Shown here one piece after another: positions 61 through 18,895 of a stretch of 20,000 nucleotides of DNA. The notes beneath the pieces are model-generated. The model ran no database searches. It saw only the letters and a program-made list of their open reading frames with translations, and was not told where the DNA came from. The first letter of the stretch is position 1; each line of letters begins with the position of its first letter. The DNA is taken from the IMG/VR virus record IMGVR_UViG_3300010233_002389; one strand, given 5' to 3'. The translations under genes were made by a program, and so were the position numbers. The stretch is from an uncultured virus (IMG/VR IMGVR_UViG_3300010233_002389) (taxonomy: Duplodnaviria; Heunggongvirae; Uroviricota; Caudoviricetes).

Positions 61-143
61 ACTAACGTGGTGGAATTGGCGAGACACAATTGACTTAGAA
101 TCAATCGCTTAAGTGCATGAGAGTTCGAATCTCTCCGTTAGTA
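61..143 (+). tRNA. tRNA-Leu(TAG)
   Basis: Acceptor ACTAACG/CGTTAGT; anticodon arm ATTGA-CT TAG AA-TCAAT; long variable arm; T arm GAGAG-TTCGAAT-CTCTC; A73 followed by CTA. Confidence 0.95.
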
Positions 144-159: not shown

Positions 160-621
160 ATGGCAATTGTAGATAAAGACTTACTAAAAAAACTAAAGAA
201 AGAAACAGGGCTTGGTATGAATGAATGCAAAGCTGCGCTTGAATCTTTAGATAACGATTATGACGGCGCCCTTCATGCCCTTGAAGAAAGAGCCCGAGAA
301 AAAGCCGAGAAGCTTGCGGGTGCCGAAGCTTCCGAAGGAGTCATTGCTTCTTATGTTCACCATGACCGTAGAATCGGCTCTATGGTAGAGCTTAACTGTC
401 AAACAGACTTCGCTGCTCGCTCAGAAGAATTTCTAGCATTTGCTGATGAACTTGCTTTGCAAATTGCGGCAACCAACCCTAAGGATATTATAGAATTGCA
501 AATGCAAGAGTCTATGTTCCAAAGCGGCAAAATAATTGAATATTGCAGAATTGAACTATCTGCTAAAATTAAAGAGAATGTAGTAATAAAGAGAATTCAT
601 AGGTTTGCATTATCAGAATGA
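160..621 (+). CDS. tsf: Translation elongation factor Ts, short form
   Basis: N-terminal LKKETGLGMNECKAAL; EGVIASYVHH..RIGSMVELNCQTDFAARSEEF (TDF motif); C-terminal KIKENVVIKRIHRF. Confidence 0.93.
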   Translation: MAIVDKDLLKKLKKETGLGMNECKAALESLDNDYDGALHALEERAREKAEKLAGAEASEGVIASYVHHDRRIGSMVELNCQTDFAARSEEFLAFADELALQIAATNPKDIIELQMQESMFQSGKIIEYCRIELSAKIKENVVIKRIHRFALSE

Positions 622-1139
622 AATATACTAAGGAATTATTAGAAGAATTAGTAAAAGATTGTTTTTCGGTTCATCAGGTTATGAAAAAGCTTGGATTGAA
701 ACTTACAGGCGGATCGCATACTCATTTATCTTCCAGATTGAAAAAATATAATATAGATATTTCACATTTTACTGGTAATGCTACAAATAAAGGAATTAAC
801 CATAAGTGTGGTAATTTGCCTTTGCATAAAGATAAAATATTAGTTTTAGACAGATTGAATGGAAGGCGAGAATCTTCATTTAGATTAAGAAGAGCAATGG
901 TTCAGCACGGCATTCAAGAAAAATGTAAAAAATGCAAATTAGAATCACTATGGAATGGTAAGCCACTTAAACTACATATAGATCATAAGAATGGAAATGG
1001 TTGTGATAATAGACCAAATAATTTAAGATTCTTATGCCCTAATTGTCATTCGCAAACAAGTAATTACGGCGCTTTGAATATAAAAAAAGTCAACGTGGTG
1101 GAACGGCAGACACAATTGGCTAAGAACCAATCGCTTTAA
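618..1139 (+). CDS. HNH homing endonuclease
   Basis: CxxC..WNGKPLKLHIDHKNG...DNRPNNLRFLCPNCHSQT. The stop codon lies inside the downstream tRNA. Confidence 0.92.
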   Translation: MKYTKELLEELVKDCFSVHQVMKKLGLKLTGGSHTHLSSRLKKYNIDISHFTGNATNKGINHKCGNLPLHKDKILVLDRLNGRRESSFRLRRAMVQHGIQEKCKKCKLESLWNGKPLKLHIDHKNGNGCDNRPNNLRFLCPNCHSQTSNYGALNIKKVNVVERQTQLAKNQSL

Positions 1140-1170
1140 CAGCATGAGAGTTCGAGTCTCTCCGTTGGCA
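1089..1170 (+). tRNA. tRNA-Leu(AAG)
   Basis: Acceptor GTCAACG/CGTTGGC; anticodon arm ATTGG-CT AAG AA-CCAAT (AAG at 1122-1124); long variable arm; T arm GAGAG-TTCGAGT-CTCTC; A73. Confidence 0.93.
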
Positions 1171-1186
1171 CGAGTTAAATAATATA

Positions 1187-1501
1187 ATGAGAAATAAAAT
1201 AAAGAGAACTCATCGCTCAAGCTTCAAGCCAGTTGGCACGGCAACCCTAGCTAGAGAAGACCTTCGTAGCAATAAGATTAAGGTCAAGGGGCGTCCCACA
1301 ATAAAGAAAATATTAACTAAAGAGCTAGGTAAGGAAAAAGCCCAAGAGTTAATAGAAAGCTTTATAGACGACCTTCTAGATAAATATAAAGGCATTATGC
1401 CGTCTGGGTCATCTTCGACATATAGTAGTAGAAGCGATTTTGGCGGGCATAATTATAATTGTACTGCCTGTGGACATTGTGGATATAATCATTTAGGATA
1501 A
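1187..1501 (+). CDS. Hypothetical protein, basic, with C-terminal Cys/His cluster
   Basis: 104-aa ORF filling the gap between two tRNAs; HNYNCTACGHCG. Confidence 0.7.
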   Translation: MRNKIKRTHRSSFKPVGTATLAREDLRSNKIKVKGRPTIKKILTKELGKEKAQELIESFIDDLLDKYKGIMPSGSSSTYSSRSDFGGHNYNCTACGHCGYNHLG

Positions 1502-1505
1502 TATT

Positions 1506-1590
1506 GCTGTGGTGGCGAAACTTGGAAGACGCGAAAGTCTCAAAAACTTTTGCCCTTTAGGGCGTGAGGGTTCGACTCCCTCCCGCAGCA
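1506..1590 (+). tRNA. tRNA-Leu(CAA)
   Basis: Acceptor GCTGTGG/CCGCAGC; AAAGT-CT CAA AA-ACTTT; variable arm GCCC-TTTA-GGGC; T arm GAGGG-TTCGACT-CCCTC. Confidence 0.95.
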
Positions 1591-1614
1591 CAATAGAAAG
1601 AAAGAAAAGACATT

Positions 1615-2007
1615 ATGGTTTGTAGACACTCTGCTGATGACCCTAATTGTAGCTCTCACCGCAATTATATTGTAGACCCCTATAAATATCCTAGCTCATT
1701 ATCTTCCGAAACACCCGAAACACCTGATTCATCAAAATACACAATTGAAGACGCCAAGCGAATAGGCGCCCATCTTGTACTTAAAGTAAAATACCCCAAT
1801 TGCTTTAATTGTTCTTATGAGGGCAATAAGATTATGGTATTTCTTAATGTTACCGAGATAGACGTTTTGAAGTGGAAAAAGATAGACCCTCATTTCCGTG
1901 ACCCAAAGCGTAAAGCCGTTAATGAAGCTCCTAGTCCAGCGGCTAGATTCCCTGGAAGTCCTGAAGGATGGTCAGACGCCCTTGCTTATGCTCAGGGTAA
2001 ATGCTAA
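1615..2007 (+). CDS. Hypothetical protein
   Basis: 130-aa ORF, purine-rich upstream sequence, co-oriented with neighbours. Confidence 0.75.
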   Translation: MVCRHSADDPNCSSHRNYIVDPYKYPSSLSSETPETPDSSKYTIEDAKRIGAHLVLKVKYPNCFNCSYEGNKIMVFLNVTEIDVLKWKKIDPHFRDPKRKAVNEAPSPAARFPGSPEGWSDALAYAQGKC

Positions 2008-2024
2008 TTTAATTACATACATGT

Positions 2025-3002
2025 ATGAAATCAGCTGACCCAATATTATCCTTAGCACATAAATACATGCTTTATTCATCCGCTGGCAAAAGAAACATCG
2101 ATAAGCAAAAACTTAATAGCCTAAGAACATTTGATGAACGTGTTGAATGGTTGACTAATGAGGGTTTTGATGTACTTGGATTTGGTACAGGTAGACTTGT
2201 AGTTTTAGTTAACCAGCGCAAAGTTATTAAGCTAGCAATGAATGAAAAGGGCGTTGCTCAAAACGAAGCAGAATTTAATGTATTAAGTAAAAACAAAAGC
2301 GAATGGTTTCCTAAAGTTTTTGATAAAGCTCCTGATAATTCATGGATGGAAGTTGAATTAGTAAAGACATTAGAGTCTATGGACGCAGTATACAAGCGCC
2401 TAGGCACTGATAAATTAACTTTCGAATGTGTAATGGAAGTAACGGATAATATAAATGACAAGTCAGTTCAAACTGCCTTAGAAGAAAATTTAGTATTCTA
2501 TGAAAATTGGATAAATAGCAGAATCCAAGAATCCGAAAAACTTACCGAAGACAGATTGGCGGAATATAAAAAAGAACTTGCTGAACGCACTAACTTAAAT
2601 CAAATTAGACAGGCACTAGCTAATCCAAAATTAATCAGCTTATTTCAGGCAATAAAAGACTTTGATATTCCCGCAAATGAATATAGAAAGGACCCATCAC
2701 ATTTTGGTGTCACTGGTGATGGCAGGTTAGTTATTACAGATGCCGGTTTAACTTCAGATGTGTTTAATAATCATTACTATAAATCACCATTTCAACTTCA
2801 TAATGAAAAAGAAAAGGACCATGATGATGAATATTACTCAAACATGAAACCTCCTTTTAAATATACACATGAATCAGACCCAACTTATGTAAGCAAAGAT
2901 CCTAAAAATACTTTGCCTCCTCCAGACCCACAAGCCCCTGCGCCTCCCAAAACTACCCCTAAGCCAGTCAACAAAAATGATATAATGTTTTTAAAACCAT
3001 AA
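2025..3002 (+). CDS. Protein kinase-like fold protein with Pro-rich tail
   Basis: LGFGTGR Gly loop, VIK lysine, QNEAE helix-C glutamate, FPKVF, and LVITDAG at the DFG position. The catalytic loop is divergent. Confidence 0.7.
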   Translation: MKSADPILSLAHKYMLYSSAGKRNIDKQKLNSLRTFDERVEWLTNEGFDVLGFGTGRLVVLVNQRKVIKLAMNEKGVAQNEAEFNVLSKNKSEWFPKVFDKAPDNSWMEVELVKTLESMDAVYKRLGTDKLTFECVMEVTDNINDKSVQTALEENLVFYENWINSRIQESEKLTEDRLAEYKKELAERTNLNQIRQALANPKLISLFQAIKDFDIPANEYRKDPSHFGVTGDGRLVITDAGLTSDVFNNHYYKSPFQLHNEKEKDHDDEYYSNMKPPFKYTHESDPTYVSKDPKNTLPPPDPQAPAPPKTTPKPVNKNDIMFLKP

Positions 3003-3003
3003 A

Positions 3004-3168
3004 ATGAATCAACACGATAGAAAATATATTTACTTGCCATTTGATATTTTTCCACCTACACTTGTCGAAGAAGAGCCTAAAGGTATGCCCTTCGATATTA
3101 GTATTCCAGAAACGCCTGACTATATAGAACCAGCTCATCCTGATTTAGGTATAGAAATAATATTTTAA
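3004..3168 (+). CDS. Small acidic Pro-rich hypothetical protein (54 aa)
   Basis: MNQHDRKYIYLPFDIFPP...GIEIIF*; exactly fills the gap between flanking ORFs; below the ORF-track cutoff. Confidence 0.6.
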   Translation: MNQHDRKYIYLPFDIFPPTLVEEEPKGMPFDISIPETPDYIEPAHPDLGIEIIF

Positions 3169-3780
3169 ATGTCTAATGTAAAAAATATAGAAGACGCTCG
3201 CAAAGAACGCGAGATGAAAAAAATATTGGACGCCATTATTGATGACCTAGGAGTCGATGCTGAACGCCTAGGGATTATGATTGCTGCTGCCCCTGATGAC
3301 ATCCGTGAAGCCGTCTCGGAAGCTATGGAACGTTATGAAATCTATAATGAACTAAAACAAATAAAGGCACAAGAAGACGAAGCCGAAGGAATCCCAGCTG
3401 ACGCCTGTTATAATGGAGTTTGTCCAAAACACAATCAAAGTCATTGTGATGATGGTCCAATGTGTGCTCAAGGATGTATTTTTAGAATGGTACAAACGCC
3501 TCCAAGCGATCCCTTCCAAAAGCTTCCTTCACATGCCGAAGCCATTAGAATGCTTCAAAGATTGGGCGAGCTGAAGCCAGATGATTTTGGAGCTTGGAAT
3601 GGAACAGACTTTATATTTCATGAAAATGTAAAAGATCTATGGAAAGCATATATTGACTTATTGGTCGAGACTGGTAAGATAAATAATTCAATATTTACAC
3701 GAAGTGATGGAACTGAAGTTGAAGATTTTGGCGAAAAACAAAAACAAGCAAAGCGTGCACTAAAGGTACTAAAGAGATGA
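3169..3780 (+). CDS. Hypothetical protein with central Cys/His cluster
   Basis: 203-aa ORF; CYNGVCPKH...CDDGPMCAQGC. Confidence 0.75.
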   Translation: MSNVKNIEDARKEREMKKILDAIIDDLGVDAERLGIMIAAAPDDIREAVSEAMERYEIYNELKQIKAQEDEAEGIPADACYNGVCPKHNQSHCDDGPMCAQGCIFRMVQTPPSDPFQKLPSHAEAIRMLQRLGELKPDDFGAWNGTDFIFHENVKDLWKAYIDLLVETGKINNSIFTRSDGTEVEDFGEKQKQAKRALKVLKR

Positions 3781-3875
3781 AGGGTTTACTACTTATTGTT
3801 ATAGTTTTCTTGGGATGGGCATTGCTTAAGGTATTAAGCTTACCTACAATTCCAAATAATCGCGACGAGGAATAA
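3777..3875 (+). CDS. Small single-TM peptide (32 aa)
   Basis: ATGA overlap with the upstream stop; MKGLLLIVIVFLGWALLKVLSLPTIPNNRDEE*. Confidence 0.5.
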   Translation: MKGLLLIVIVFLGWALLKVLSLPTIPNNRDEE

Positions 3876-3894
3876 TACGATATAGATAATACAT

Positions 3895-3968
3895 CCAGTA
3901 CGATGGTCCGGTATGACCTGGAAACTCTGATAAAGTTTTCGTGACAAGTTCGACTCTTGTGTGCTGGA
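3895..3968 (+). tRNA. Atypical tRNA-Ile(GAT)
   Basis: Acceptor CCAGTAC/GTGCTGG; D arm GGTC-CGGTAT-GACC; GGAAACT-CT GAT AA-AGTTTTC; T arm ACAAG-TTCGACT-CTTGT; A73. Confidence 0.75.
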
Positions 3969-3987
3969 CCCTAGAAAGACATCTTTA

Positions 3988-4494
3988 ATGAAGCCATCCA
4001 TAATAGTCAGAGGCGAAGAGTCTGAATCGGAGACTTATGCTGGTAAATTATTCCAATACCATGCTGAGTTTGATAAATACCTTCGAGATAATTTTTCGTC
4101 AGAATATGTTACAAAGATGGAAAATCTTAAAGGCTCAAGTTTACGGGAATATCTTATAACTATAAAAGAAGCAAAAGCCAAGACTGTAAAAAGAATCATA
4201 TCCGCAACTCATTCCTGGGTACCAGAAATGAAAGATTTTTTTCGACATGGCAATTGGCATAGTGTTCCTTTTAGATGTAAAGTATGTAAGTATGAAGCTG
4301 GCACATATGAATATGCGGATGAATTAACTACACCAATAAAAGTAGAAGATAATATTCCAACTCAAACTAAGCATGGAACTTTAATTCATTTTACTTGTCA
4401 AGAAGTACAGAATAGAAGGTCTGATAGTAAAAAGCTTAGATATAAGAAATGTTGGACATGTGGCGTTTTTGGATGCCCTTGGTACATGATATAA
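3988..4494 (+). CDS. Hypothetical protein with two CxxC motifs
   Basis: The track start at 3961 lies in the tRNA, so ATG 3988 is more plausible. CKVC and CWTC motifs. Confidence 0.7.
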   Translation: MKPSIIVRGEESESETYAGKLFQYHAEFDKYLRDNFSSEYVTKMENLKGSSLREYLITIKEAKAKTVKRIISATHSWVPEMKDFFRHGNWHSVPFRCKVCKYEAGTYEYADELTTPIKVEDNIPTQTKHGTLIHFTCQEVQNRRSDSKKLRYKKCWTCGVFGCPWYMI

Positions 4495-4513
4495 TAATAC
4501 GGCATACTGATAC

Positions 4514-4586
4514 GGTTTCGTGATGTTAATGGCTAGCATGACTCTCTCTTAAAGAGCCTGAGTGAGTTCGAATCTCACCGGAACCA
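4514..4586 (+). tRNA. tRNA-Lys(CTT)
   Basis: Acceptor GGTTTCG/CGGAACC; CTCT-CT CTT AA-AGAG; T arm GTGAG-TTCGAAT-CTCAC. Confidence 0.88.
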
Positions 4587-4603
4587 CTGAAAGTAAGAAA
4601 ATT

Positions 4604-4795
4604 ATGGCAATAGGCGACAAATGGGGAAATATAAAGTGCCCCAAATGTAATAAGATTAAATTGCACGTCTGGCACTTCGCTATGGATGATAGCTATAGTG
4701 ATTCATCATCTGGTGGCGCGTGTAAAGCTTGCGGCTTTAAGCCAGATAAAACCGATTTAGGTAAGTATCTATCAAAAATCAATGGACGAAATTAA
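4604..4795 (+). CDS. Small zinc-ribbon-like protein
   Basis: CPKC...CKAC; start moved to ATG 4604, outside the tRNA. Confidence 0.65.
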   Translation: MAIGDKWGNIKCPKCNKIKLHVWHFAMDDSYSDSSSGGACKACGFKPDKTDLGKYLSKINGRN

Positions 4796-5468
4796 ATTTA
4801 AAGAATACCAAGAGCGTTTTCGCACTGCCGCATCGCGTCATGATGGCAATTTAATCGAATTGCCTAATGGTGGAACTATATTTACCAAGGGCAAAAGACA
4901 CCGAGACCATCTCTCAATTATGAGCGGCGTTCATGGAGATGAGCGAAGCGGTCCATTAGCTCTATTAAGATGGTTAGAAGAAACTGAGCCTGGTAAACTA
5001 ATCAATAAGTATACTACCTTATGGATTTGTCCACTCGTAAATGATGATGGCTGGGATAAAAAAAATAGACTACATAATGGTTTAGACCTTAATCGTTCAT
5101 TTACAAATGAATTGGCTCCAGAGTTTCTTAAGGTTATTATGGAAAGCCTTAACAACACCAACAATCCTTTAGGCAATAGATTTAGTACATTTTTTGATTT
5201 ACATGAAGATGATGAAGTTAATGTTCCGTTCTTATTCCATTGTATAGAAAATAGTATACAGGATGTCCATACTATAGCAAAATTATTAGATGCAAAGGTT
5301 GAGCTATGGTCAACTGAAGATAATAAGTGGGATGGCTCCAGCGAAACATATGTACGTAGTATAAAGTATAGTTGGGCTATGACGCTTGAAGCAACCCCAT
5401 TCTGGGAACTAAATAAAAGAATTGATTGGTATATGAAATTTTTAAACTACTGTAGTCGTACTTGGTAA
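4782..5468 (+). CDS. M14-type zinc carboxypeptidase / succinylglutamate desuccinylase-aspartoacylase family protein
   Basis: GVHGDE (HxxE), PLVNDDG, DLNRSF, DLHE and C-terminal TLE catalytic Glu. Confidence 0.85.
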   Translation: MDEIKFKEYQERFRTAASRHDGNLIELPNGGTIFTKGKRHRDHLSIMSGVHGDERSGPLALLRWLEETEPGKLINKYTTLWICPLVNDDGWDKKNRLHNGLDLNRSFTNELAPEFLKVIMESLNNTNNPLGNRFSTFFDLHEDDEVNVPFLFHCIENSIQDVHTIAKLLDAKVELWSTEDNKWDGSSETYVRSIKYSWAMTLEATPFWELNKRIDWYMKFLNYCSRTW

Positions 5469-5503
5469 CATGTCTAAAATAAGGCATAAACCATAAAGAC
5501 CAT

Positions 5504-5872
5504 ATGACAATTATAGAATTCGTGTGTGATATAATCCCGAAAAATACAAAACCTGAATATTGTATCAATGGCAAAGATGTAATTATTCCAATGGAAGAAT
5601 GTACATTTAGCTCTGCCGATGAATTCAAAGATATATTCAATAAGTTCTCATCTATACTCGAAGGTAGCATTACACAATACCCAAAGGTAGTTGTATTTAT
5701 GGTAATTGAAACCCCTACAATATCATTTGCCAGCCATACTGTAAAAACTAAAGTAGGCTTCTATGCAAGTACGGATGAAGAGGCATTTGAGGGGATGGAG
5801 CGAGTTGATGACAGCCGTTGTCCTAAAATTATACAAGAAAGTTTTAACAAATTATTATTTTTGACGAATTGA
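5504..5872 (+). CDS. Hypothetical protein
   Basis: 122-aa co-oriented ORF. Confidence 0.65.
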   Translation: MTIIEFVCDIIPKNTKPEYCINGKDVIIPMEECTFSSADEFKDIFNKFSSILEGSITQYPKVVVFMVIETPTISFASHTVKTKVGFYASTDEEAFEGMERVDDSRCPKIIQESFNKLLFLTN

Positions 5873-5878
5873 GATATT

Positions 5879-6109
5879 ATGGAAAATCCTGCTTATTGGA
5901 CCGAACTTCATTGGAAAATTCATAGAGTTGGCTATGATATGGAACACACTTCACGTGCAAAAGAAATTACAAAAATCTTGCAAGATGAAGGAATGCCTGG
6001 TACACTAGAAGAAGTAATACAACTCATACAGGCACATAATGATGAAATAGAAGAAGGTATATGTGGGCACTCATTGCCAGCAAAGATAATTAATTATTAT
6101 ACAAAGTAA
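5879..6109 (+). CDS. Hypothetical protein
   Basis: 76-aa co-oriented ORF with GAGA upstream. Confidence 0.65.
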   Translation: MENPAYWTELHWKIHRVGYDMEHTSRAKEITKILQDEGMPGTLEEVIQLIQAHNDEIEEGICGHSLPAKIINYYTK

Positions 6110-6114
6110 AATTT

Positions 6115-6207
6115 GGGACTGTAGCTTAGACGTAAAGCGCCTGTAAAACGATGTAGCCTCTTAGCAGAGGTTCGGAGATGAAGAATCGACCCCTTCCAGT
6201 TCCACCA
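6115..6207 (+). ncRNA. tRNA-Ala-like RNA lacking a canonical anticodon arm
   Basis: Acceptor GGGACTG/CAGTTCC (G3:U70), A73, encoded CCA; U8A9; D arm GCTT-AGACGTA-AAGC; T-like arm GAAG-AATCGACCC-CTTC; the central region carries hairpin AGCCTCT-TAGC-AGAGGTT. Confidence 0.8.
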
Positions 6208-6209
6208 AT

Positions 6210-6494
6210 ATGCTATTAAATCAAATAGGCAAATCAGAAAACAAAATAGTTGTTTCAGGAGTATTCAAATTCTATGAAACTCATGGGCTTCCTTTATCAG
6301 ATATTCTATTTGGCATAAATAATAAGAATGGTTTACCTGATTTTCTATCTTTCTATATAGAAGCTAGAAATGCTGGAATGAAACATTCTAGAGTTCTAAG
6401 TATTTTAGAAGAAGGTCTAAATGATTCTACAGTTTATCCAAATGAAAGCATAACAATAATACTAGAAAGATTAAAGTCGTTGAATGACAAATAA
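6210..6494 (+). CDS. Stand-alone protein resembling the AlaRS helical tRNA-recognition segment
   Basis: FKFYETHGLPLSDILFGINNKNGLPDFLSF aligns without gaps to the AlaRS motif F[KR]LYDTYGFP-x15-D-x3-F. No catalytic domain is present. Confidence 0.65.
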   Translation: MLLNQIGKSENKIVVSGVFKFYETHGLPLSDILFGINNKNGLPDFLSFYIEARNAGMKHSRVLSILEEGLNDSTVYPNESITIILERLKSLNDK

Positions 6495-6663
6495 ACTATT
6501 AGCGGCATTCATATCTATATTAATTGTTTATATAGCATTGTGGATTTTTTGTTTTTGGTATCGCCCATGGTTCGCATTTGCAACCATTCCTGCTATATTT
6601 ATACAATATTTTGTTTATAAATTATTATTGAATAAGATAACAAAGAAAAGTTTTTATTTATAA
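6484..6663 (+). CDS. Small membrane protein (59 aa, about 2 TM)
   Basis: MTNKLLAAFISILIVYIALWIFCFWYRPWFAFATIPAIFIQYFVYKLLL...; below the track cutoff. Confidence 0.55.
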   Translation: MTNKLLAAFISILIVYIALWIFCFWYRPWFAFATIPAIFIQYFVYKLLLNKITKKSFYL

Positions 6664-6665
6664 AA

Positions 6666-6839
6666 ATGTTAAGCTTGCCCAAAATAGTATTATATATTAT
6701 GTTAATTGCTATAATGCAATTTATAGTTGTAACAGTTCTTCCAAAGCCAATAAATTTATTGGCAATTATGGCAGTTTTCTTTGGACATTTATATTTATTC
6801 AGATACCTAATTGATAATACAAAATTACTACATAAATGA
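6666..6839 (+). CDS. Small membrane protein (57 aa, about 2 TM)
   Basis: MLSLPKIVLYIMLIAIMQFIVVTVLPKPINLLAIMAVFFGHLYLF...; stop overlaps the next ATG. Confidence 0.55.
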   Translation: MLSLPKIVLYIMLIAIMQFIVVTVLPKPINLLAIMAVFFGHLYLFRYLIDNTKLLHK

Positions 6840-7645
6840 AACATATACGTAATGTATTAATAATTCTCTTTTTTGCATTCGTAGCGTGCTTAGATCAAAA
6901 TAATAAGATCGAGTCACAATCTATCATAGCAGAATCACCAATACTTGTATTAGACGAAATAGAAATCAACGAAAATAATTACCAATGCCCTTATGATATG
7001 GTACTTGTTGATGGAGAATACTGCTCCAACCTAGATATGCAATGTGCTCATATGGGCGGACCCAAACATCACGTTTGTCAAGAATTTGCTCAAACAAAAT
7101 GTATGTCAAAAAAAACCAGACATATGAACTTCTGTATGGATAAATATGAATGGCCAAACGAGGAGGGTATTATTCCAGATGTAATGTTTAGTTTTCTTGA
7201 TTTAGATAAAATGTGCAAATCCATCGGCAAAAGACTTTGCGCCGATGTCGAATTTATAAAAGCGTGTGAAGGTCCAGAAAACAAGCCATACCCATATGGT
7301 TACGTAAGAAATGATTCAATTTGCAATATCGATAAGATACCCATTGAATGGGATCAAGAAAAAATCAAACACAAAGATTGGGATGAAGTCAAAAAAGTTG
7401 ACCAAAGAGTACCAAGTGGATCGATGCCTTCTTGCGTTTCTGATTATGGTGTATATGATATAGTTGGAAATGTAGATGAGGAATACCAAAATACAATAGG
7501 TGAAGGCACTCCTCATCCAAACGTTATGATGAGTGGACACTGGATGAGAGGCGCAAGAAATATGTGTCGAGGCAGGACGCTAGTGCATAATGAATGGTTT
7601 TACATATACGAAGCGGGCGGACGATGTTGTAAGGATCCACAATGA
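6836..7645 (+). CDS. FGE-sulfatase (formylglycine-generating enzyme-like) domain lipoprotein
   Basis: Signal peptide ending FVAC; CPYDMVLVDG, FCMDKYEWPN, GKRLC..EF.KAC.G....YPYG, GVYDIVGNVDE, GRCC. Confidence 0.85.
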   Translation: MKHIRNVLIILFFAFVACLDQNNKIESQSIIAESPILVLDEIEINENNYQCPYDMVLVDGEYCSNLDMQCAHMGGPKHHVCQEFAQTKCMSKKTRHMNFCMDKYEWPNEEGIIPDVMFSFLDLDKMCKSIGKRLCADVEFIKACEGPENKPYPYGYVRNDSICNIDKIPIEWDQEKIKHKDWDEVKKVDQRVPSGSMPSCVSDYGVYDIVGNVDEEYQNTIGEGTPHPNVMMSGHWMRGARNMCRGRTLVHNEWFYIYEAGGRCCKDPQ

Positions 7646-7854
7646 AATATTTAATTTTAGTTATGTTATTATGTTTGGCATGTAACCCCGAAACACGTAA
7701 ACAACGTAGAACACTAATTGGTCCTGATGGTTATCCAGCATTAGATATTTGTAATTTTTATGATGCCGCAGACTTTTGCCCAAATGGATATGATGTCCTT
7801 GTCATAAAACATGAGTGTATGTTAATTAGATGTAAGACAAATAATCACAATTAA
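7642..7854 (+). CDS. Small putative lipoprotein
   Basis: MKYLILVMLLCLAC lipobox-like signal; Cys-rich body. Confidence 0.65.
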   Translation: MKYLILVMLLCLACNPETRKQRRTLIGPDGYPALDICNFYDAADFCPNGYDVLVIKHECMLIRCKTNNHN

Positions 7855-8115
7855 ATGAAAATAGTAAGAAAAATCATAACAACAAAAGAAGAGGAAGAAG
7901 TAGTCGATGTATTGTGCAATAAGTGTGGTAAAACGTGCCGCAATCCAGGTGCCTATGAACAATCTCCTTATGGTTTGATAGAACAAACATATTCAGGCGG
8001 TTATGGGTCTACTCCATTAGATGACTGCACAAATTATACATTTTCAATTTGCGAGTCTTGTCTAAAAGATTTTTTTGACTCATTTATAATCCCAGTCGAA
8101 ATTAGCGAATATTAG
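7855..8115 (+). CDS. Hypothetical zinc-binding protein
   Basis: CNKCGKTC ... ICESC. Confidence 0.7.
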   Translation: MKIVRKIITTKEEEEVVDVLCNKCGKTCRNPGAYEQSPYGLIEQTYSGGYGSTPLDDCTNYTFSICESCLKDFFDSFIIPVEISEY

Positions 8116-8134
8116 CTAGTATGCATAATTTTAT

Positions 8135-8323
8135 ATGGTCTTTATGTACGACCAAGACCGTGAAGAGCTAAGGAAAGCAGCCGATGCCATTTGGGAACTT
8201 GCAAAAAATACTCCAAGCAGTGACGTCGAAAATGTGCTAAAACAATTATCTACTGCATTACACCATTGCGCTGGCGGTCGTAAGTCTGGTATCATTCTTA
8301 TAGACGAACTAAATGAACCATAA
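8135..8323 (+). CDS. Hypothetical protein
   Basis: 62-aa co-oriented ORF overlapping the next start. Confidence 0.6.
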   Translation: MVFMYDQDREELRKAADAIWELAKNTPSSDVENVLKQLSTALHHCAGGRKSGIILIDELNEP

Positions 8324-8546
8324 TTGGACAATTGAAATAATTTCAGATATGCCCAGTTTGCATACTTATAGGGATGATCGGCGAGATATTTCTTTAAACA
8401 TAAAATGTCATAATTGTGGATTTTATGTTAATGGAAAAGGAGATTTTCTTTCCGTTAAGGACGCAAAAAATTGGGCTAATGGATTACCAAAAAGTTTTGA
8501 AGCTGAAAATTGTAACGAACATATAATGAAACAAATATTAAAATGA
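8313..8546 (+). CDS. Small Zn-finger-like protein of the IM-x-DVL-tail family
   Basis: HNW...CHNCG...CNEHIMKQILK. Confidence 0.7.
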   Translation: MNHNWTIEIISDMPSLHTYRDDRRDISLNIKCHNCGFYVNGKGDFLSVKDAKNWANGLPKSFEAENCNEHIMKQILK

Positions 8547-8552
8547 GGATAC

Positions 8553-8861
8553 ATGGTACAAGAAATTAATGAAGCAAATTGGGACGCAGAAGTACTAAAG
8601 TCGGAAACACAAGTATTAGTTGACTTTACCGCTACTTGGTGTGGTCCTTGCAAAAGGCTATCTCCCATTGTCGAAGACTTATCAAAGGACCTCGAAGGTA
8701 AAACTAAAGTAGTTAAAGTTGATATAGATAATTCACCTGAACTAGCCAAAAAATATGGCGTTCGTGGCGTTCCTACATTAATGGTTTTTGATGGCGGCGA
8801 AAAAACTGCTAGCATTGTTGGTTTAACCAGCCGCGAGAATATAATTAAATTATTAGCATGA
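8553..8861 (+). CDS. trxA: Thioredoxin
   Basis: VLVDFTATWCGPCK, VRGVPTL; GAGGA Shine-Dalgarno. Confidence 0.97.
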   Translation: MVQEINEANWDAEVLKSETQVLVDFTATWCGPCKRLSPIVEDLSKDLEGKTKVVKVDIDNSPELAKKYGVRGVPTLMVFDGGEKTASIVGLTSRENIIKLLA

Positions 8862-9094
8862 AATATTTAATACTTATAATTCTATTACTTGCATCATGTG
8901 ATCGTCTTGATCTGGACAAGACAACTGCAATTCAAGATAAAGAATTTAAAGAAAAAAAATTAGAAATGTGGAATGGTCCATGTGCTGACGAAGCAACTTT
9001 ACTTATAACATCCTCTGGATACTCAGTCTATCATATATGTTCTAATAAATTACATAAAAATGCGAGTACAAGTTGCAACACACCCATCAAATGA
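8858..9094 (+). CDS. Small putative lipoprotein, possibly frameshifted (alternative end 9146)
   Basis: MKYLILIILLLASC lipobox. A second frame continues from the A-run near 9056-9060 to 9146. Confidence 0.6.
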   Translation: MKYLILIILLLASCDRLDLDKTTAIQDKEFKEKKLEMWNGPCADEATLLITSSGYSVYHICSNKLHKNASTSCNTPIK

Positions 9095-9166
9095 AAATGT
9101 TGGGGCTTTAATATTTTGTGAATGTCAAAAGAATGAAACGAATTAAGATCACAATAGAAAAAGATA

Positions 9167-9340
9167 ATGAGTGAAATAAAAGCAATAGCATTCGAAACAC
9201 ATTGCCCAACATGTAAAACTGAATATGAAAATATTGGGCACCCTTTACGCCCCGGTGTTATAATGATGCGTACTTGTAAGTGTAAATATAAAACAATTAC
9301 AAATGGCAACAATGTAGTTATAGAATTAGAAAAAAAATGA
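9167..9340 (+). CDS. Small zinc-ribbon-like protein (57 aa)
   Basis: MSEIKAIAFETHCPTCK...TCKC...TNGNNVVIELEKK*; stop overlaps the next ATG. Confidence 0.6.
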   Translation: MSEIKAIAFETHCPTCKTEYENIGHPLRPGVIMMRTCKCKYKTITNGNNVVIELEKK

Positions 9341-9564
9341 GACCGATTAATCAAGGACCAGTAAGCAAGGGAAAGTTTTGCGACTATTGTCCTTGCTCAA
9401 ATTGTCAAGAAGGTTCAAAGATCATGGGCAGTTTACCTTGCGAAGATGGAACAAATATCTGTGAATGTTGCTATGGTGAAGACCCTTGTGGCATGGGCTG
9501 TCAAGGCGGATACCCTGACCAGCCATGTGAACATAAACCAAAATTAAAGAAAGATAAAGACTAA
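9337..9564 (+). CDS. Cys-rich small protein, copy 1
   Basis: KGKFCDYCPCSNCQ...CEDGTNICECCY.EDPCG.GC.GG...QPC.HKPKL; paralog of 9692-9916. Confidence 0.75.
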   Translation: MRPINQGPVSKGKFCDYCPCSNCQEGSKIMGSLPCEDGTNICECCYGEDPCGMGCQGGYPDQPCEHKPKLKKDKD

Positions 9565-9695
9565 TGGAAAATCAAGAAAAATGGGATAGGCGATTTTTGG
9601 AACTTGCAAAACAAGTTTCGACATGGAGCAAAGACCCAAGCACAAATGGAAATAATATAATTGTCGAATTGGAAGAAAATAAAAAGAATAAATGA
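9564..9695 (+). pseudogene. Chimeric junction ORF: dCMP deaminase N-terminus fused to the C-terminus of a 9167-like gene
   Basis: MENQEKWDRRFLELAKQVSTWSKDPST + NGNNIIVELEENKKNK*. Confidence 0.7.
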
Positions 9696-10011
9696 GAGCA
9701 TCTGGACAAGGAATAAGTAAGGGCAAATTTTGTGATTATTGTACTTGCAAAGATTGTCAGAATGGTGGACCATCTTACTTGACAAGTCTTGCATGCCAAG
9801 ATGGAACAAATATTTGCAATATCTGTTATCGTGAAGACCCATGTGGATTGGGCTGCAACGGAGGCTCACCAGAACAACCATGTAAACACAAACCAAAATT
9901 AAAGAAAATACTGTAGAAAGATAAGGATAAATGGAGCATCAAGAAAAATGGGATAGGCGATTTTTGGAACTTGCAAAACAAGTTTCGACATGGAGCAAAG
10001 ACCCAAGCACA
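9571..10011 (+). repeat. 74-nt exact direct repeat (9571-9644 and 9938-10011)
   Basis: ATCAAGAAAAATGGGATAGG...GACCCAAGCACA is present twice. Confidence 0.95.
9692..9916 (+). CDS. Cys-rich small protein, copy 2
   Basis: Same Cys pattern as 9337-9564 with many substitutions. Confidence 0.75.
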   Translation: MRASGQGISKGKFCDYCTCKDCQNGGPSYLTSLACQDGTNICNICYREDPCGLGCNGGSPEQPCKHKPKLKKIL

Positions 10012-10395
10012 CAAGTAGGTGCAATACTCGTAAATGACCTAAGACAAATAGTTGGAATGGGCTACAATGGATTTGCCAGAGGATGTAGTGATGACCCTGA
10101 GCTGTATGCAAATCGAGAGCTAAAATATGCTCGCGTTGTTCACGCAGAAGTAAACGCAATTATTCAAGCAGGGCATGCTGCACGTGGAACGACCATTTAT
10201 GTTTATCCGTCGTTTATGTTGCCTCCCGTTTGTCAGGATTGTTGCAAAGCTGTTATTCAAGCTGGAGTCAAAGGTATTGTTGGATATCTCCCAAATGAAA
10301 CCGACCCACGTGTAATACGCTGGAAAGACTCTATTTCAATTGCACGAGATATGTGGACTGAAGTTGGTAATTTCATCCGCTCTTATGAAGAATAA
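9931..10395 (+). CDS. dCMP deaminase (ComEB/DCTD family)
   Basis: SKDPSTQVGA, GYNG, HAEVNAI, PVCQDC zinc ligands. Confidence 0.92.
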   Translation: MEHQEKWDRRFLELAKQVSTWSKDPSTQVGAILVNDLRQIVGMGYNGFARGCSDDPELYANRELKYARVVHAEVNAIIQAGHAARGTTIYVYPSFMLPPVCQDCCKAVIQAGVKGIVGYLPNETDPRVIRWKDSISIARDMWTEVGNFIRSYEE

Positions 10396-10424
10396 CAAGT
10401 AATATTGATATATAGTATATACCT

Positions 10425-10498
10425 GGGGTCGTGGCTCAATTGGCACAGCACATCCTTTGCACGGATACATTTTGCGAGTTCGATTCTCGCCGACTCCA
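10425..10498 (+). tRNA. tRNA-Ala(TGC)
   Basis: Acceptor GGGGTCG/CGACTCC with G3:U70; ATCC-TT TGC AC-GGAT; T arm GCGAG-TTCGATT-CTCGC. Confidence 0.93.
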
Positions 10499-10567
10499 CT
10501 AAGCTATTGAATTCATTTATGAATTATGTTCTTATGTATATGGAGGATTTAATTATCTAAATTTGAA

Positions 10568-10891
10568 GTGGAAAATATGCTAATAAGTGTTGTTGCTTTA
10601 ATGATTGCACTTTTATCATTACTGTCAAACTTCGAGAAGTTTTCTAAATTTGTAGACGTTTGGTGGGGTATTTTAAGAGGCAAGAAGTGTTCTTCGGATA
10701 ATTGTAAATATCTAGAATACGCTGACGACTATACACACGATGACGCTCATGATATTTTTCAAAAGAAATATAAATTAGCTTACAATCTTGATAATGAAAT
10801 TCCTAGCAGCCATATATTTGTATTTTTGACATTAAGATTTTTTAGTAAGGTTGATGGGACATATAATAGTTTTAGAATGGTAAGACCATAA
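10568..10891 (+). CDS. Hypothetical protein with N-terminal hydrophobic segment
   Basis: 107-aa ORF; MLISVVALMIALLSLL. Confidence 0.55.
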   Translation: MENMLISVVALMIALLSLLSNFEKFSKFVDVWWGILRGKKCSSDNCKYLEYADDYTHDDAHDIFQKKYKLAYNLDNEIPSSHIFVFLTLRFFSKVDGTYNSFRMVRP

Positions 10892-10892
10892 T

Positions 10893-11577
10893 TCATCTTT
10901 TTAAGAATTTTCTAACCGCATTATCACTTACGCCAAATTTCTTACCAGTTCTAACATACCCGTGTCTTTTAACCATATCTTCGATAATAGATTTTTCTGG
11001 CCAGTCTACCTTAGTTTTAAGTTCAGAAAGAACTTTTTTATTACAAGTAAAACACAATCTTGATTTAGATGATTTTTTGGAGCCCTTACAATTAGAGCAA
11101 ACAAATTTATAAGCATGTCGTTCTTTTTTCTTTTTTGAGCCACAATAAGTCTCCGTTTGCGAATGGCAATTTGGACATAATATTCTCAAATTATCAATTC
11201 TATTATCTGAAGAGTCTCCATTAATATGATCTAAGTGCAAAGATAAAGATTTGCCGTTCCACTCAGGTAACAACCCACACTCATAACAGACATTATTCAA
11301 AACTTTATCTTTGATAAGACGCAACCTTAGGCTACTTGTTGATCGGTATTTACCATTAACTAATAGTTCATCAATAGGTGTTGTAGAAAAAATTACCACC
11401 GTTTGAACTAGCACGAAAATGATTTATATCAATGTTTAACCGTTTGATTTCAGCATGAAATAATTTATTATACCATCCCTGATTGCCTGGTAATCCAAAT
11501 TTATTCAATACTACTGATATAGAATAACTGTTTTTAACAGTCTCAATAAATTCTTCATCACTCCAATATTTATTCAT
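10893..11577 (-). pseudogene. HNH endonuclease split by a 1-nt frameshift
   Basis: 11371-11577 resembles the N-terminus of the 618 HNH (..NIDINHF versus ..NIDISHF). 10893-11414 has LHLDHING..DNRIDNLRILCPNCHSQT and a C-terminal HTH-like GVSDNAVRK. The frames join at the T6 run (+ strand A6, 11387-11392). Confidence 0.85.
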
Positions 11578-11634
11578 AAAATGATATTTGTTAACAAATC
11601 AAGAGAACTCGACTAATAATAAAACATAAATTAC

Positions 11635-11711
11635 AGGACATTAGCTCAATTGGCAGAGCGCCGGTTCTACACTCCGGAGGTTTATCGGTTCGAGTCCGAT
11701 ATGTTCTACCA
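11635..11711 (+). tRNA. tRNA-Val(TAC), atypical
   Basis: Acceptor AGGACAT/ATGTTCT; D arm GCTC/GAGC; CCGG-T TC TAC AC T-CCGG; T arm ATCGG-TTCGAGT-CCGAT; ACCA. Confidence 0.85.
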
Positions 11712-11782
11712 GGGTTGCATAACATTGCTATAAAGACTTTGATACTCTATCTCACGGGAATCAAAGCGACCCTGAATTTTTT
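11710..11782 (+). other. Long bulged hairpin directly after tRNA-Val, followed by a T-run (terminator or ncRNA)
   Basis: CAGGGTTGC (11710-11718) pairs with GCGACCCTG (11766-11774); TTTGAT (11738-11743) pairs with ATCAAA (11760-11765). Confidence 0.5.
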
Positions 11783-11920
11783 GAAAGATAAATAACATAA
11801 TATAAAATCTATATCAGCGCTATTGAAAAAAAATAATAAAACCGTGGCATGAAAAATCTAAAATTGATGACGACCTACATTTAGAACTAAAGAAAATGAA
11901 CGAAGAAAGAGATAAAGAAG

Positions 11921-12157
11921 ATGCATTATAAAGATGGAACATTAGCACAAATTGGCGATGTAGTTGTAGGAACAGTATATAATAACAAAGGAACTATTGT
12001 TGGTATAATATCAGAAATTACAAGTCAAACAAGTGAGACATGTAACTGTAAAGTACAAATACTAACAATTGTTCGAGAAGAAGAAGGTAGACGGTTAGTA
12101 ATGCAATCAAATGTAACTGATTACAGTGAATGCAAAGCATTATTAAAAGTTTGTTAA
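11921..12157 (+). CDS. Hypothetical protein
   Basis: 78-aa ORF; MHYKDGTLAQIGDVVVG. Confidence 0.7.
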   Translation: MHYKDGTLAQIGDVVVGTVYNNKGTIVGIISEITSQTSETCNCKVQILTIVREEEGRRLVMQSNVTDYSECKALLKVC

Positions 12158-12162
12158 AAATT

Positions 12163-12234
12163 GGGACCTTATTTCAGCGGTAGAATATCATCTTAACATG
12201 ATGAAGGTCATTGGTTCGAATCCAATAGGTCCTA
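12163..12234 (+). tRNA. tRNA-Val(AAC)
   Basis: Acceptor GGGACCT/AGGTCCT; TCATC-TT AAC AT-GATGA (AAC at 12195-12197); AGGTC variable loop; T arm ATTGG-TTCGAAT-CCAAT; A73. Confidence 0.92.
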
Positions 12235-12256
12235 CTAGGAAAACAAACATGATAAA

Positions 12257-13045: not shown

Positions 13046-13068
13046 CTATATAAAAAGGACATTCGAAA

Positions 13069-13395: not shown

Positions 13396-13652
13396 CGTGC
13401 AAGCCCAGACATAATTGGGTTAGTATTTTTACACCACGGGAAGATCCAAGTGGTTATGGAATAAATTATACAGTTAAATGCGTCCATTGCCACTATGTAT
13501 TAGATGAAATAACTTATACAGTTAAATGCCACTATGTATTAGATAAACAAATTATAGGTGATGACGAAATTAGTTTTGATGAGTACCCAATATACATAAA
13601 AGATAAACATTCCCATTATAATAAAATGATAATGAAAGACGTGTTATGTTAG
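13383..13652 (+). CDS. Small protein of the IM-x-DVL-tail family with internal duplication
   Basis: HNW...CVHC...KMIMKDVLC; YTVKC..HYVLD occurs twice. Confidence 0.7.
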   Translation: MEKLTCKPRHNWVSIFTPREDPSGYGINYTVKCVHCHYVLDEITYTVKCHYVLDKQIIGDDEISFDEYPIYIKDKHSHYNKMIMKDVLC

Positions 13653-14695
13653 ATAATCTCAAATATCGTAAATTTCAAAAGATCATACAAGAAAACGAAC
13701 AAAAGATAAAAGATATGCCCAAAGCTGAGCTTCACGTTCATCTTGATGGGTCTCTGCGTATTGATACGATGATTGAGCTTGCAATCCAATCACATTACAT
13801 TGGCACTGACTATATGGCGTCTCATGTAAAGCCAGTTGGTTTGCCATCACATTACCCACCGGCATTAATTAGAAAATTAAAGTTCGATCAAAAATACGAA
13901 TCATTAGAAGATTGTCTTAAAGTATTTACATTAACTACTGCGCTTATGCAGAACAAACTATCTCTAAATAGAATAGCGTTTGAATTAGTTGAAGATGCTT
14001 ATTGCGAAAACATTCAATACATGGAGATTAGGTTCGCTCCACATTTACACACCAATCGTCAGCAAACTAATGAAGATGTTTTAAATGAAGTACTAAACGG
14101 CTTATCAAGAGCTACTTTCCAATATAATGTCGAAACAAAAGTAATCATTTGTGGGATTAGAAATTTATCGCCAGATCTTTCATTAGAAATGGCTAAGCTA
14201 GCAGTTGCATTTAAGGATAAGGGAGTCGTAGGGTTTGATTTGGCTGGTGGCGAAAATGGATTTCCACCAGGTTTGCATAAGGATGCCTTCCAGGTTGCAC
14301 GAGATGGCGGACTAGGCATTACAATCCACGCTGGCGAAAGCGCCGGTCCAGAATCAATCAAAGAAGCTCTCGATCTTGGAGCTACTCGAATAGGTCACGG
14401 ATGCAGAATCATAGAAGATAAGAAACTAATGACCAGAGCTATAAAAGAAAATATAGCTCTCGAATGCTGTCCAACTTCCAACTGGCAAACTGGAGCTGTC
14501 AAAGACCTATCTGAACATCCACTAAAGAAATGCTTTGATGCCGGCATTAAAGTTACAATTAATACTGATAATAGATTGGTTCACAATACAACACTAACTA
14601 AAGAACTGTTGAAATGCGGGACAGAGATGAATCTCGGCATTGATACAATTACTGAGATGGTAGAGAATGGATTCAAAGCAAAATTCACAGTGTGA
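13646..14695 (+). CDS. add: Adenosine deaminase
   Basis: PKAELHVHLDGS, YMEIRFAP, GFDLAGGE, TIHAGE, RIGHG, CPTSN, INTDN. Confidence 0.95.
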   Translation: MLDNLKYRKFQKIIQENEQKIKDMPKAELHVHLDGSLRIDTMIELAIQSHYIGTDYMASHVKPVGLPSHYPPALIRKLKFDQKYESLEDCLKVFTLTTALMQNKLSLNRIAFELVEDAYCENIQYMEIRFAPHLHTNRQQTNEDVLNEVLNGLSRATFQYNVETKVIICGIRNLSPDLSLEMAKLAVAFKDKGVVGFDLAGGENGFPPGLHKDAFQVARDGGLGITIHAGESAGPESIKEALDLGATRIGHGCRIIEDKKLMTRAIKENIALECCPTSNWQTGAVKDLSEHPLKKCFDAGIKVTINTDNRLVHNTTLTKELLKCGTEMNLGIDTITEMVENGFKAKFTV

Positions 14696-17691: not shown

Positions 17692-17715
17692 TATTGTGAT
17701 ATAATAACATTACAT

Positions 17716-18202: not shown

Positions 18203-18216
18203 TTTGACATATAAAT

Positions 18217-18893: not shown

Positions 18894-18895
18894 AA

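Follow-up and report, generated by a model that had tools for sequence, protein, structure and literature searches.

Adenosine is very seldom the wobble base (A34) of prokaryotic tRNAs. Why this is so has been named as an open question, and the reported lack of such tRNAs in phages is cited as backing strong selection against them. Among the closest described systems are the Leu(AAG/IAG) tRNAs of Lactobacillales such as Streptococcus, Lactococcus and Oenococcus, which are edited by the deaminase TadA, and tRNAs operating with unmodified A34, namely Mycoplasma Thr-AGU, the unedited A34 tRNAs of Oenococcus oeni and engineered E. coli tRNA-ANN. Eukaryotes and giant viruses employ Val(AAC/IAC), a substrate of ADAT2/3. 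Finally, phage tRNA clusters are associated with codon compensation and nuclease-insensitive tRNAs, and are said to lack non-Arg ANN tRNAs (PMC8007984), a view also voiced in 10.64898/2026.05.15.725136.

The window, i.e., the entire 20-kb stretch of phage DNA analysed here, harbours 13 tRNA genes (ARAGORN), including Leu-AAG, Val-AAC, Leu-TAG and Val-TAC; all features described below lie on the plus strand. The class II tRNA-Leu(AAG) gene spans positions 1089..1170 (ARAGORN, 1089-1171), with the anticodon AAG at 1122-1124 in the loop CU-AAG-AA (1120-1126). The tRNA-Val(AAC) gene, which has a Val-GAC-type body, spans 12163..12234 (ARAGORN, 12163-12235), with the anticodon AAC at 12195-12197 in the loop UU-AAC-AU (12193-12199). 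They are accompanied by tRNA-Leu(TAG), the paralogue and likely parent of Leu-AAG (61..143; ARAGORN, 61-144; loop CU-UAG-AA), and by the isoacceptors tRNA-Leu(CAA) (1506..1590) and tRNA-Val(TAC) (11635..11711), both found by ARAGORN and the Rfam model RF00005.

Judged by the RF00005 gathering score (29), a 7-nt loop, U33 and a purine at position 37, Leu-AAG (48.8 bits, E 6.6e-8) and Val-AAC (59.2 bits, E 9.2e-11, above the 56.8 bits of Val-TAC) are both tRNA genes, and each has a 5-bp Watson-Crick anticodon stem and A73. A defect of Val-AAC is the U-U mismatch in the first D-stem pair. Neither gene encodes CCA, which is complete in the drawn 3' ends of only 4 of the 13 ARAGORN tRNAs (Val-TAC, Thr-GGT, Gly-GCC and Glu-CTC). 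The identity elements of tRNA-Leu, a long variable arm, A73 and A15-U48, are all present in the ARAGORN structure of Leu-AAG, as are those of tRNA-Val (A35, C36 and A73) in Val-AAC, and the host LeuRS and ValRS would charge the two tRNAs. Upon free folding, Leu-AAG adopts a full cloverleaf and Val-AAC only the acceptor and anticodon stems; since Val-TAC folds just as incompletely, free folding was left out as evidence. A Glu gene with an intron, called on the opposite (minus) strand over the adenosine deaminase gene, was an artefact of a lowered threshold. Leu-AAG and Val-AAC are thus confirmed as real tRNA genes, and ARAGORN, RF00005 and the drawn structures bear out the earlier note, which had described intact cloverleaves with AAG and AAC beside Leu-TAG and Val-TAC.

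The tRNA region of the phage has a GC content of 35%. A short form of elongation factor Ts (160..621; Pfam EF_TS and TIGR00116, above cut-off) lies between both Leu paralogues and is followed by an HNH endonuclease gene (618..1139), the frame of which enters Leu-AAG, where the anticodon coincides with an AAG codon of that frame. The phage host is probably a Polyangiaceae-like, GC-rich myxobacterium, as judged from proteins of 42-51% identity; a host marker is the FGE-sulfatase-domain protein (6836..7645), a family expanded in Polyangiaceae-like genomes, and the nearest named relatives of the adenosine deaminase are in Myxococcota. Genomes of the likely host group contain Leu-GAG (18/19) and Val-GAC (17/19). 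Within the 20-kb window, ARAGORN found no Leu-GAG, and no Val-GAC was seen apart from the GAC-type body of Val-AAC.

Leu-AAG and Val-AAC arose separately. With position 34 masked, Leu-AAG is 86% identical to the phage's own Leu-TAG, the top value of 37 within-locus pairs, and the pairs 1-72, 3-70 and 31-39 are altered on both sides in a compensatory manner; Leu-TAG would have been duplicated, followed by a change of U34 to A. The four nearest non-AAC viral relatives of Val-AAC all carry GAC (77-82%), and the loop UU-GAC-AU occurs in 62 of 88 distinct viral Val-GAC genes; in this case a G34 to A transition would have taken place within a Val-GAC body, presumably in that direction. A myxobacterial chromosome was rejected as the source of Leu-AAG, which aligns with the phage's Leu-TAG and not with Nannocystis Leu-AAG, and so was a eukaryotic virus origin. 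Overall, we favour, at a probability of roughly 0.55, two wobble switches that happened independently among the accessory tRNAs of a large, AT-rich phage whose host is a GC-rich myxobacterium.

The substrate consensus of S. pyogenes TadA is YUAMGRA, according to 10.1101/2023.09.19.555891. The Leu-AAG loop, CUAAGAA, matches this consensus, and its sole difference from the loop of the TadA substrate tRNA-Arg(ACG) is position 35. Given this TadA-type loop, Leu-AAG is probably edited at least partly by host TadA, a prediction made from sequence: the host's own enzyme would convert it to I34 partly or completely, the simplest route for Leu-AAG and one that the earlier note had omitted. According to PMC11066159, a CU-AAG-AA loop placed in an M. 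jannaschii body is edited to about 15% by E. coli TadA, and AAC remains unedited, with a U:C reading of 59:41. S. pyogenes Leu-AAG was not edited in vitro by E. coli TadA (10.1101/2023.09.19.555891), and editing therefore depends on the host enzyme. The Val-AAC loop, UUAACAU, deviates from YUAMGRA by C36 and U38 instead of G36 and A38; since it is unfit for TadA, A34 probably stays unmodified and reads GUU best, by analogy with E. coli data from another tRNA body, while GUC and GUG would be read more weakly. Reading of GUU by unmodified A34, already considered in the earlier note, is plausible for Val-AAC. Both tRNAs would give the phage further readers of CUU and GUU, through Watson-Crick pairing or inosine, neither would miscode, as both belong to four-codon boxes, and neither would require a phage enzyme. 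The benefit of A34, and the effect of the locus on the phage itself, are probably modest.

Viral counts, which are pattern samples, place Leu-AAG in 21 of 114 sampled Leu-RAG loci and in at least 120 IMG/VR stretches. Together with the window, these stretches contradict for Leu-AAG the claim that phages lack non-Arg ANN tRNAs. Loci with Leu-AAG have a lower GC content (median 0.35 vs 0.46, p = 1e-9), and below 40% GC it is the majority purine form of viral clusters (9/15). A38 is found in 18/21 viral Leu-AAG loci versus 6/93 Leu-GAG loci, and may have been inherited from Leu-TAG parents, which mostly carry A38 themselves. Confirmed viral Val-AAC genes number 22, and 16 of them form a single family including giant-virus bins, which agrees with the view that Val-AAC is mainly a eukaryotic choice; the remainder are six unrelated singletons of 24-66% GC (one full scan). 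The Leu-AAG/Val-AAC pair is also present in locus L135, and locus L156 has it with an irregular Val loop. Leu-AAG is probably a favoured, recurring state and a regular member of viral tRNA clusters rich in AT, and Val-AAC is probably tolerated and turns up sporadically.

Leu-AAG replaces Leu-GAG in 55 of 251 Myxococcota genomes, while both occur together in none. Given these genomes and the AT-rich viral clusters, the earlier note, which limited Leu-AAG to a few lineages, understated how common it is. The Leu-AAG genomes include GC-rich, CUC-heavy Nannocystis, and in the cultured Nannocystis exedens Leu-AAG is the sole CUY reader found. This GC-rich species breaks the reported tie of Leu-AAG-type tRNAs to AT-rich genomes, and myxobacterial Leu-AAG predicts Leu-IAG outside Bacilli. 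TadA is present in Myxococcota (5/5 genomes in one check, 26/30 in another), and their Arg loops are CUACGGA (16/19) or CUACGAA (3/19). On a 31-row TadA tree, Leu-AAG needs 6 changes, at least 3 of which are forced by well-supported branches, and no active-site column is diagnostic for Leu-AAG genomes, which suggests that ordinary myxobacterial TadA tolerates the Leu-AAG loop. A diagnostic TadA residue was rejected, as only one C-terminal column emerged.

Codon usage relates A34 to base composition. In 48 ORFs of the window, GTT accounts for 129 of 298 Val codons and CTT for 88 of 472 Leu codons (19%), compared to 9-29% GTT and 9-21% CTT in Leu-GAG myxobacteria (three 19-kb samples); CUU and GUU are used far more by the phage than by such hosts, although its CTT share overlaps the host-type range. 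Once the U:C ratio of the other boxes is regressed out, CTT:CTC is no higher in Leu-AAG than in Leu-GAG loci (p = 0.76 for 59 vs 51 loci), and the residuals of the window stay below 1 SD (Val 0.23, SD 0.59; Leu 0.12, SD 0.57), on which grounds box-specific codon adaptation was rejected. Moreover, Thr-GGT, Ile-GAT and Gly-GCC retain G34, though ACT, ATT and GGT equal or exceed their C-ending partners. A34 tracks AT-richness, not box-specific codon excess. The proposed match to abundant CTT/GTT codons hence stands as far as general AT-richness is concerned, but not as an excess in these boxes.

The lack of box-specific excess also suits near-neutral drift, in which AT-biased mutation places A at redundant wobble bases and selection keeps the fold but ignores base 34, because host G34 and phage U34 tRNAs already read the boxes. 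The Val-GAC and Leu-GAG genes of the likely hosts and the scattered Val-AAC singletons fit this explanation, as does the finding that four-fold-box A34 tRNAs work in E. coli and are often neutral or beneficial (reported in 10.64898/2026.05.15.725136). However, drift should strike all boxes equally, yet of the 56 clusters that contain Leu-AAG, no more than 3 per box have another non-Arg A34 type and only 2 also have Leu-GAG, and the predominance of Leu-AAG below 40% GC likewise speaks against it. We regard drift as possible but unlikely. Evasion of nucleases is more doubtful still: A34 forms would escape cutters of host Leu-GAG and Val-GAC, and CUY and GUY would stay readable during defence. 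The likely host group indeed carries other anticodons than the phage, and a mechanism of this general kind has been described for phage tRNAs (PMC10264068), but evasion does not predict that Leu-AAG goes with low GC across many viral loci.

An assembly error that altered one base of a Val-GAC gene, with Leu-AAG being real, is improbable. The GAC-type body and loop, the absence of another Val-GAC from the window, a scaffold gap of 10 N and the contig being the sole record for its proteins are compatible with an error; against it stand genuine Val-AAC genes in other viral contigs, including the six outside the giant-virus family, and long genes free of frameshifts in the window. In long contigs, the consensus is rarely wrong at any particular base. 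Of 17 candidate relatives from a scan of viral contigs with EF-Ts, none was confirmed, and phage-specific Leu and Val patterns matched no viral stretch; the Leu pattern matched one 1.1-kb metagenome contig bearing an unrelated Leu-CAG. Searches with the adenosine deaminase (8 viral loci, 27-29% only) and the dCMP deaminase (3/301 genomes, 43-46%) yielded no close relative. Among distant huge phages, 150 kb of LR756501 (40 tRNA calls, no Val gene) and 40 kb of LR756511 (12 calls) contain Leu-GAG and no A34 tRNA, and the top Val match in cultured phages is Val-TAC of crAss001.

The window encodes two deaminases. One is a dCMP deaminase (9931..10395; PHROG 174, E 9.5e-37), with relatives of 62-79% named dCMP deaminase on contigs up to 172 kb; it failed on the TadA model (18.6 bits, cut-off 150) and scored 16 bits on a profile of 5 myxobacterial TadA proteins, which themselves score 265-277 bits. 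The other is a nucleoside adenosine deaminase of the amidohydrolase fold (13646..14695; TIGR01430, 279.8 bits, cut-off 216.55). By these assignments and TadA scores, both were rejected as A34 editors; across the window and 355 viral loci the myxobacterial TadA profile gave at most 33 bits. The suggested phage-encoded, broadened A-to-I deaminase found no support in the 20-kb window. Thus, although two A34 tRNAs in one genome, their recurrence in L135 and L156, the roughly 55 kb of the contig (74,915 bases) and the further genome that lie outside the window, and repeated Leu-AAG in Myxococcota leave some room for a widened, ADAT-like deaminase of phage or host that would edit both tRNAs and create a eukaryote-like Val-IAC, these scores and the G34 kept in Thr, Ile and Gly tRNAs (the eukaryotic ADAT-type set, which extends A34 to the Thr, Ile, Ala, Pro and Ser boxes, is not seen, the window having no Pro or Ser genes) make it the least probable explanation, and a very improbable one.

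Under the favoured reading of two separate wobble switches, each gene resembles a different known system. Like the Lactobacillales Leu-IAG system, the phage combines the anticodon AAG with a loop fitting YUAMGRA; within the 20 kb of the window, no Leu-GAG lies beside it. In contrast to that system, its Leu-AAG is phage-borne, derives from a Leu-TAG and not a Leu-GAG body, carries A37 instead of G37 and is only predicted to be edited, and the likely host keeps Leu-GAG. Val-AAC shares an A34 in a four-codon box with Mycoplasma Thr-AGU, the unedited Oenococcus oeni tRNAs and engineered E. coli tRNA-ANN, as well as a loop unlikely to be accepted by TadA. It differs from them by belonging to the valine box, being phage-encoded and being accompanied by an isoacceptor with U34 and by the host's G34 tRNA, and therefore need not read all four codons. 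With eukaryotic and giant-virus Val-AAC it has the anticodon in common, but not the body, the UU-AAC-AU loop or the surroundings, which are of the bacterial type (EF-Ts, CoaD, PHROG matches) and include no ADAT seen in the window. As in other phage tRNA clusters, 13 tRNA genes in 20 kb are set amid HNH genes and small ORFs, yet unlike these clusters as reviewed, the window has non-Arg ANN tRNAs, and Leu-AAG and Val-AAC lend themselves as natural tests of TadA specificity and of decoding by unmodified A34.

Thirteen tRNA genes are called by ARAGORN in the window, including Leu-AAG (1089-1171), Val-AAC (12163-12235), Leu-TAG, Leu-CAA and Val-TAC. Leu-AAG and Val-AAC alone carry an anticodon starting with A (A34), and the window sequence reads AAG at 1122-1124 and AAC at 12195-12197. 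Both genes exceed the Rfam tRNA threshold of 29 bits (48.8 and 59.2 bits, respectively), and both have complete anticodon stems and U33, A37 and A73; the D stem of Val-AAC harbours one U-U mismatch. The two cloverleaves described in the earlier note are thus borne out, and the listing of ANN tRNAs it proposed adds no third gene in the window. The second valine tRNA, Val-TAC (11635-11711), has C33 in place of U33 (loop UC-UAC-AC), and its anticodon stem is closed by a U-U pair.

The two A34 tRNAs have separate origins. With the wobble base masked, Leu-AAG shares 86% identity with Leu-TAG (61-143) of the same phage, the highest value among 37 within-locus AAG/TAG pairs, and it is nearer to this paralogue than to any other Leu gene of the viral set. 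After the two diverged, both partners in pairs 1-72, 3-70 and 31-39 were replaced and 2-71 turned into U-G, and therefore selection has maintained the Leu-AAG fold. Myxobacterial Leu-AAG genes were rejected as kin, as they showed no resemblance on alignment. The body of Val-AAC is of the Val-GAC type. Setting other AAC genes aside, the four viral Val genes closest to it all carry GAC (77-82%), and outside base 34 its loop is identical to the most frequent loop of viral Val-GAC genes (62 of 88 distinct ones). Like a duplicated target, the two Leu paralogues lie on either side of the EF-Ts (160-621) and HNH (618-1139) genes. The HNH frame enters Leu-AAG by 51 bases, so that the anticodon falls in frame as a Lys codon; in the TAG parent this position would be a stop.

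The window (35% GC, GC3 0.26) resembles a large phage's tRNA region and encodes EF-Ts, CoaD, thioredoxin, HNH endonucleases, a dCMP deaminase, an adenosine deaminase and numerous small ORFs. An apparently split HNH endonuclease (overlapping frames 11371-11577 and 10893-11414, upstream of Val-TAC) represents the only minus-strand genes noticed, and a scaffold gap of 10 N (17620-17629) lies within an HTH/endonuclease-like gene (17018-17704). At 6115-6204 a tRNA-like RNA combines an acceptor stem, D arm, T-like arm and encoded CCA with an irregular 32-nt middle where the anticodon arm is expected; it scores 36 bits as Rfam tRNA, matches skipping-rope weakly (E 0.16) and is absent from the ARAGORN calls. 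It is followed by a 94-aa ORF (6210-6494), reminiscent of an alanyl-tRNA synthetase fragment, which gave no match in family searches of the window proteins. A tandem duplication (9337-10011) comprises two Cys-rich 75-aa genes, 76% identical at the DNA level, together with a truncated repeat, 97 bases long, of the beginning of the dCMP deaminase gene (9548-9644, 95% identical to 9915-10011). About ten small Cys/His-rich ORFs (8313-8546, 12567-13652, 17957-19665) share the C-terminal tail C-x-E-x-x-M-K-x-V-L, and none matches a Pfam family above cut-off.

The nearest named relatives of the adenosine deaminase belong to Myxococcota (~50%). The FGE-domain protein strongly matches (E < 3e-39) 19 of 251 genomes sampled from this phylum, that of a Polyangiaceae genome; the 19 form the group of that genome, and Leu-GAG occurs in 18, Val-GAC in 17 and Leu-AAG in none. 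From these protein relatives and tRNA contents we infer that the phage probably infects a Polyangiaceae-like, GC-rich bacterium that has G34 readers.

How would such tRNAs be read? With the sequence CUAAGAA, the loop of Leu-AAG conforms to YUAMGRA, the consensus for TadA of Streptococcus pyogenes; that enzyme edits the streptococcal Leu-AAG fully, whereas the TadA of Escherichia coli left this tRNA unedited (10.1101/2023.09.19.555891). Placed in a Methanocaldococcus jannaschii body, CUAAGAA received ~15% inosine from E. coli TadA, which A37G abolished, and an AAC variant stayed unedited, reading GUU at 0.84, GUC at 0.59 and GUG at 0.35% (PMC11066159). TadA is present in Myxococcota, whose Arg loops differ from the phage Leu-AAG loop by one or two bases. 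Loop fit, published editing and host enzyme together suggest that host TadA would convert Leu-AAG to inosine (I34), partly to fully, and that Val-AAC would keep unmodified A34, a reading to which we assign a probability of 0.55.

One option in the earlier note was that unmodified A34 reads abundant CTT and GTT codons. In 48 hand-picked window ORFs, GTT accounts for 129 of 298 Val and CTT for 88 of 472 Leu codons, and the U:C ratios of the Val and Leu boxes (4.9 and 3.7) are the highest among ten compared. The match to codon use goes no further than general AT-richness. Median GC is lower in 59 viral loci with Leu-AAG than in 51 with Leu-GAG (0.35 and 0.46, p = 1e-9), but the former showed no extra CTT once general U:C bias was removed (p = 0.76), ORF calling in these comparisons being crude. 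Window codon residuals for both boxes are ordinary, and the Thr, Ile and Gly tRNAs retain G34; all this counts against a specific codon fit. Near-neutral drift of the wobble base to A is possible but doubtful, and evasion of host anticodon nucleases, also raised in the earlier note, is unlikely. An assembly error at the wobble base of Val-AAC seems improbable, even though the window's wobble bases rest on a single assembly: the contig, of 74,915 bases, has proteins recorded nowhere else. The protein at 9931-10395 is a dCMP deaminase (PHROG E 9.5e-37; 18.6 bits with the TadA model, cut-off 150), and 13646-14695 encodes a nucleoside adenosine deaminase scoring above its family cut-off. The proposed TadA profile search, with a profile from five myxobacterial proteins (265-277 bits on its own members), never exceeded 33 bits against the window and 355 viral loci, all translated in six frames. 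A phage-encoded, widened A-to-I deaminase is thus very improbable: nothing in the window points to a new enzyme, although the viral loci comprise 20-kb flanks, leaving room for a TadA elsewhere in the genome.

Phage Leu-AAG is part of a common, apparently under-reported pattern. A pattern search of IMG/VR retrieved at least 120 stretches, with Leu-AAG called by ARAGORN in all 120 listed; 80 of these had flanks, and in 56 of them eight or more tRNAs were counted. Allowing A or G at position 34 gave at least 114 viral stretches (21 AAG and 93 GAG among the matches listed), some possibly host genes at prophage edges and the loci being non-independent. Of the listed stretches, 54 span 8 kb or more and hold eight or more tRNAs; within this set, AAG occurs in 9 of 15 below 40% GC and in 2 of 39 above. 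Val-AAC is a rare, probably unedited one-off. A complete pattern scan gave 30 stretches, 22 of them Val-AAC genes by ARAGORN: 16 form one family including five giant-virus bins, consistent with the supposed mainly eukaryotic distribution, and 6 are unrelated singletons of putative phage status. In a Val sample with A or G at position 34, 103 of 113 were GAC and five confirmed AAC, four of the giant-virus family. These Val counts are lower bounds, because the strict pattern matched Val-GAC in just 78 of the 251 bacterial genomes. Viral locus L135 holds Leu-AAG and Val-AAC together, as does L156, where the Val loop is irregular.

Chromosomal Leu-AAG was matched in 55 of the 251 Myxococcota genomes and Leu-GAG in 179, with none matching both and 17 neither; together with the viral stretches, this makes the few lineages allowed by the earlier note an understatement for Leu-AAG. 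Val-AAC was matched in none of the 251, all 78 Val matches being GAC. Myxobacterial Leu-AAG loci include L470 (genome G003), L471, L474-L476 and L450-L459. Among 35 titled genomes, ten have AAG (Nannocystis exedens DSM 71, N. bainbridge, other Nannocystales, a Sandaracinaceae bin, a Polyangiales bin and four bins placed to phylum or class), 21 have GAG (Polyangiaceae, Myxococcaceae, Anaeromyxobacteraceae) and four lack a match. The switch to A34 brings a remodelled loop, mostly CU-AAG-GA vs UU-GAG-GU/GG. Sampled over 19 kb each, five AAG genomes (57-73% GC) use CTC for 33-69% of their Leu codons; since unmodified A34 reads CTC poorly, Leu-IAG is likely in these GC-rich, CTC-heavy myxobacteria, outside Bacilli. 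On a short single-gene TadA tree of 31 rows, which leaves 14 of its 28 inner branches open, the AAG label needs six changes, which suggests several origins or losses. Of 31 tadA loci inspected in myxobacteria (L445, L446, L503, L509 and others), 19 have tRNA-Arg(ACG) no further than about 1.5 kb from tadA.

No prior report of phage or myxobacterial Leu-AAG was found among the top literature matches; supplementary taxon lists (PMC13249217, 10.1101/2023.09.19.555891, 10.64898/2026.05.15.725136), Rafels-Ybern 2018 or a 2019 paper may already include myxobacteria. Phages are stated to lack such ANN tRNAs (PMC8007984; 10.64898/2026.05.15.725136), and the virus survey cited there does not contain "AAG" in its main text (PMC6409571). 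Bacterial Leu-AAG is placed almost entirely in Bacilli by PMC13249217, whose main text contains neither "Myxo" nor "phage", and ANN genera are linked to 60-70% AT (10.64898/2026.05.15.725136). The importance of the locus rests mostly on its conflict with the published generalisation and on the testable myxobacterial Leu-AAG; compared with known systems, it represents a variant of established A34 tRNAs that is carried by a phage.
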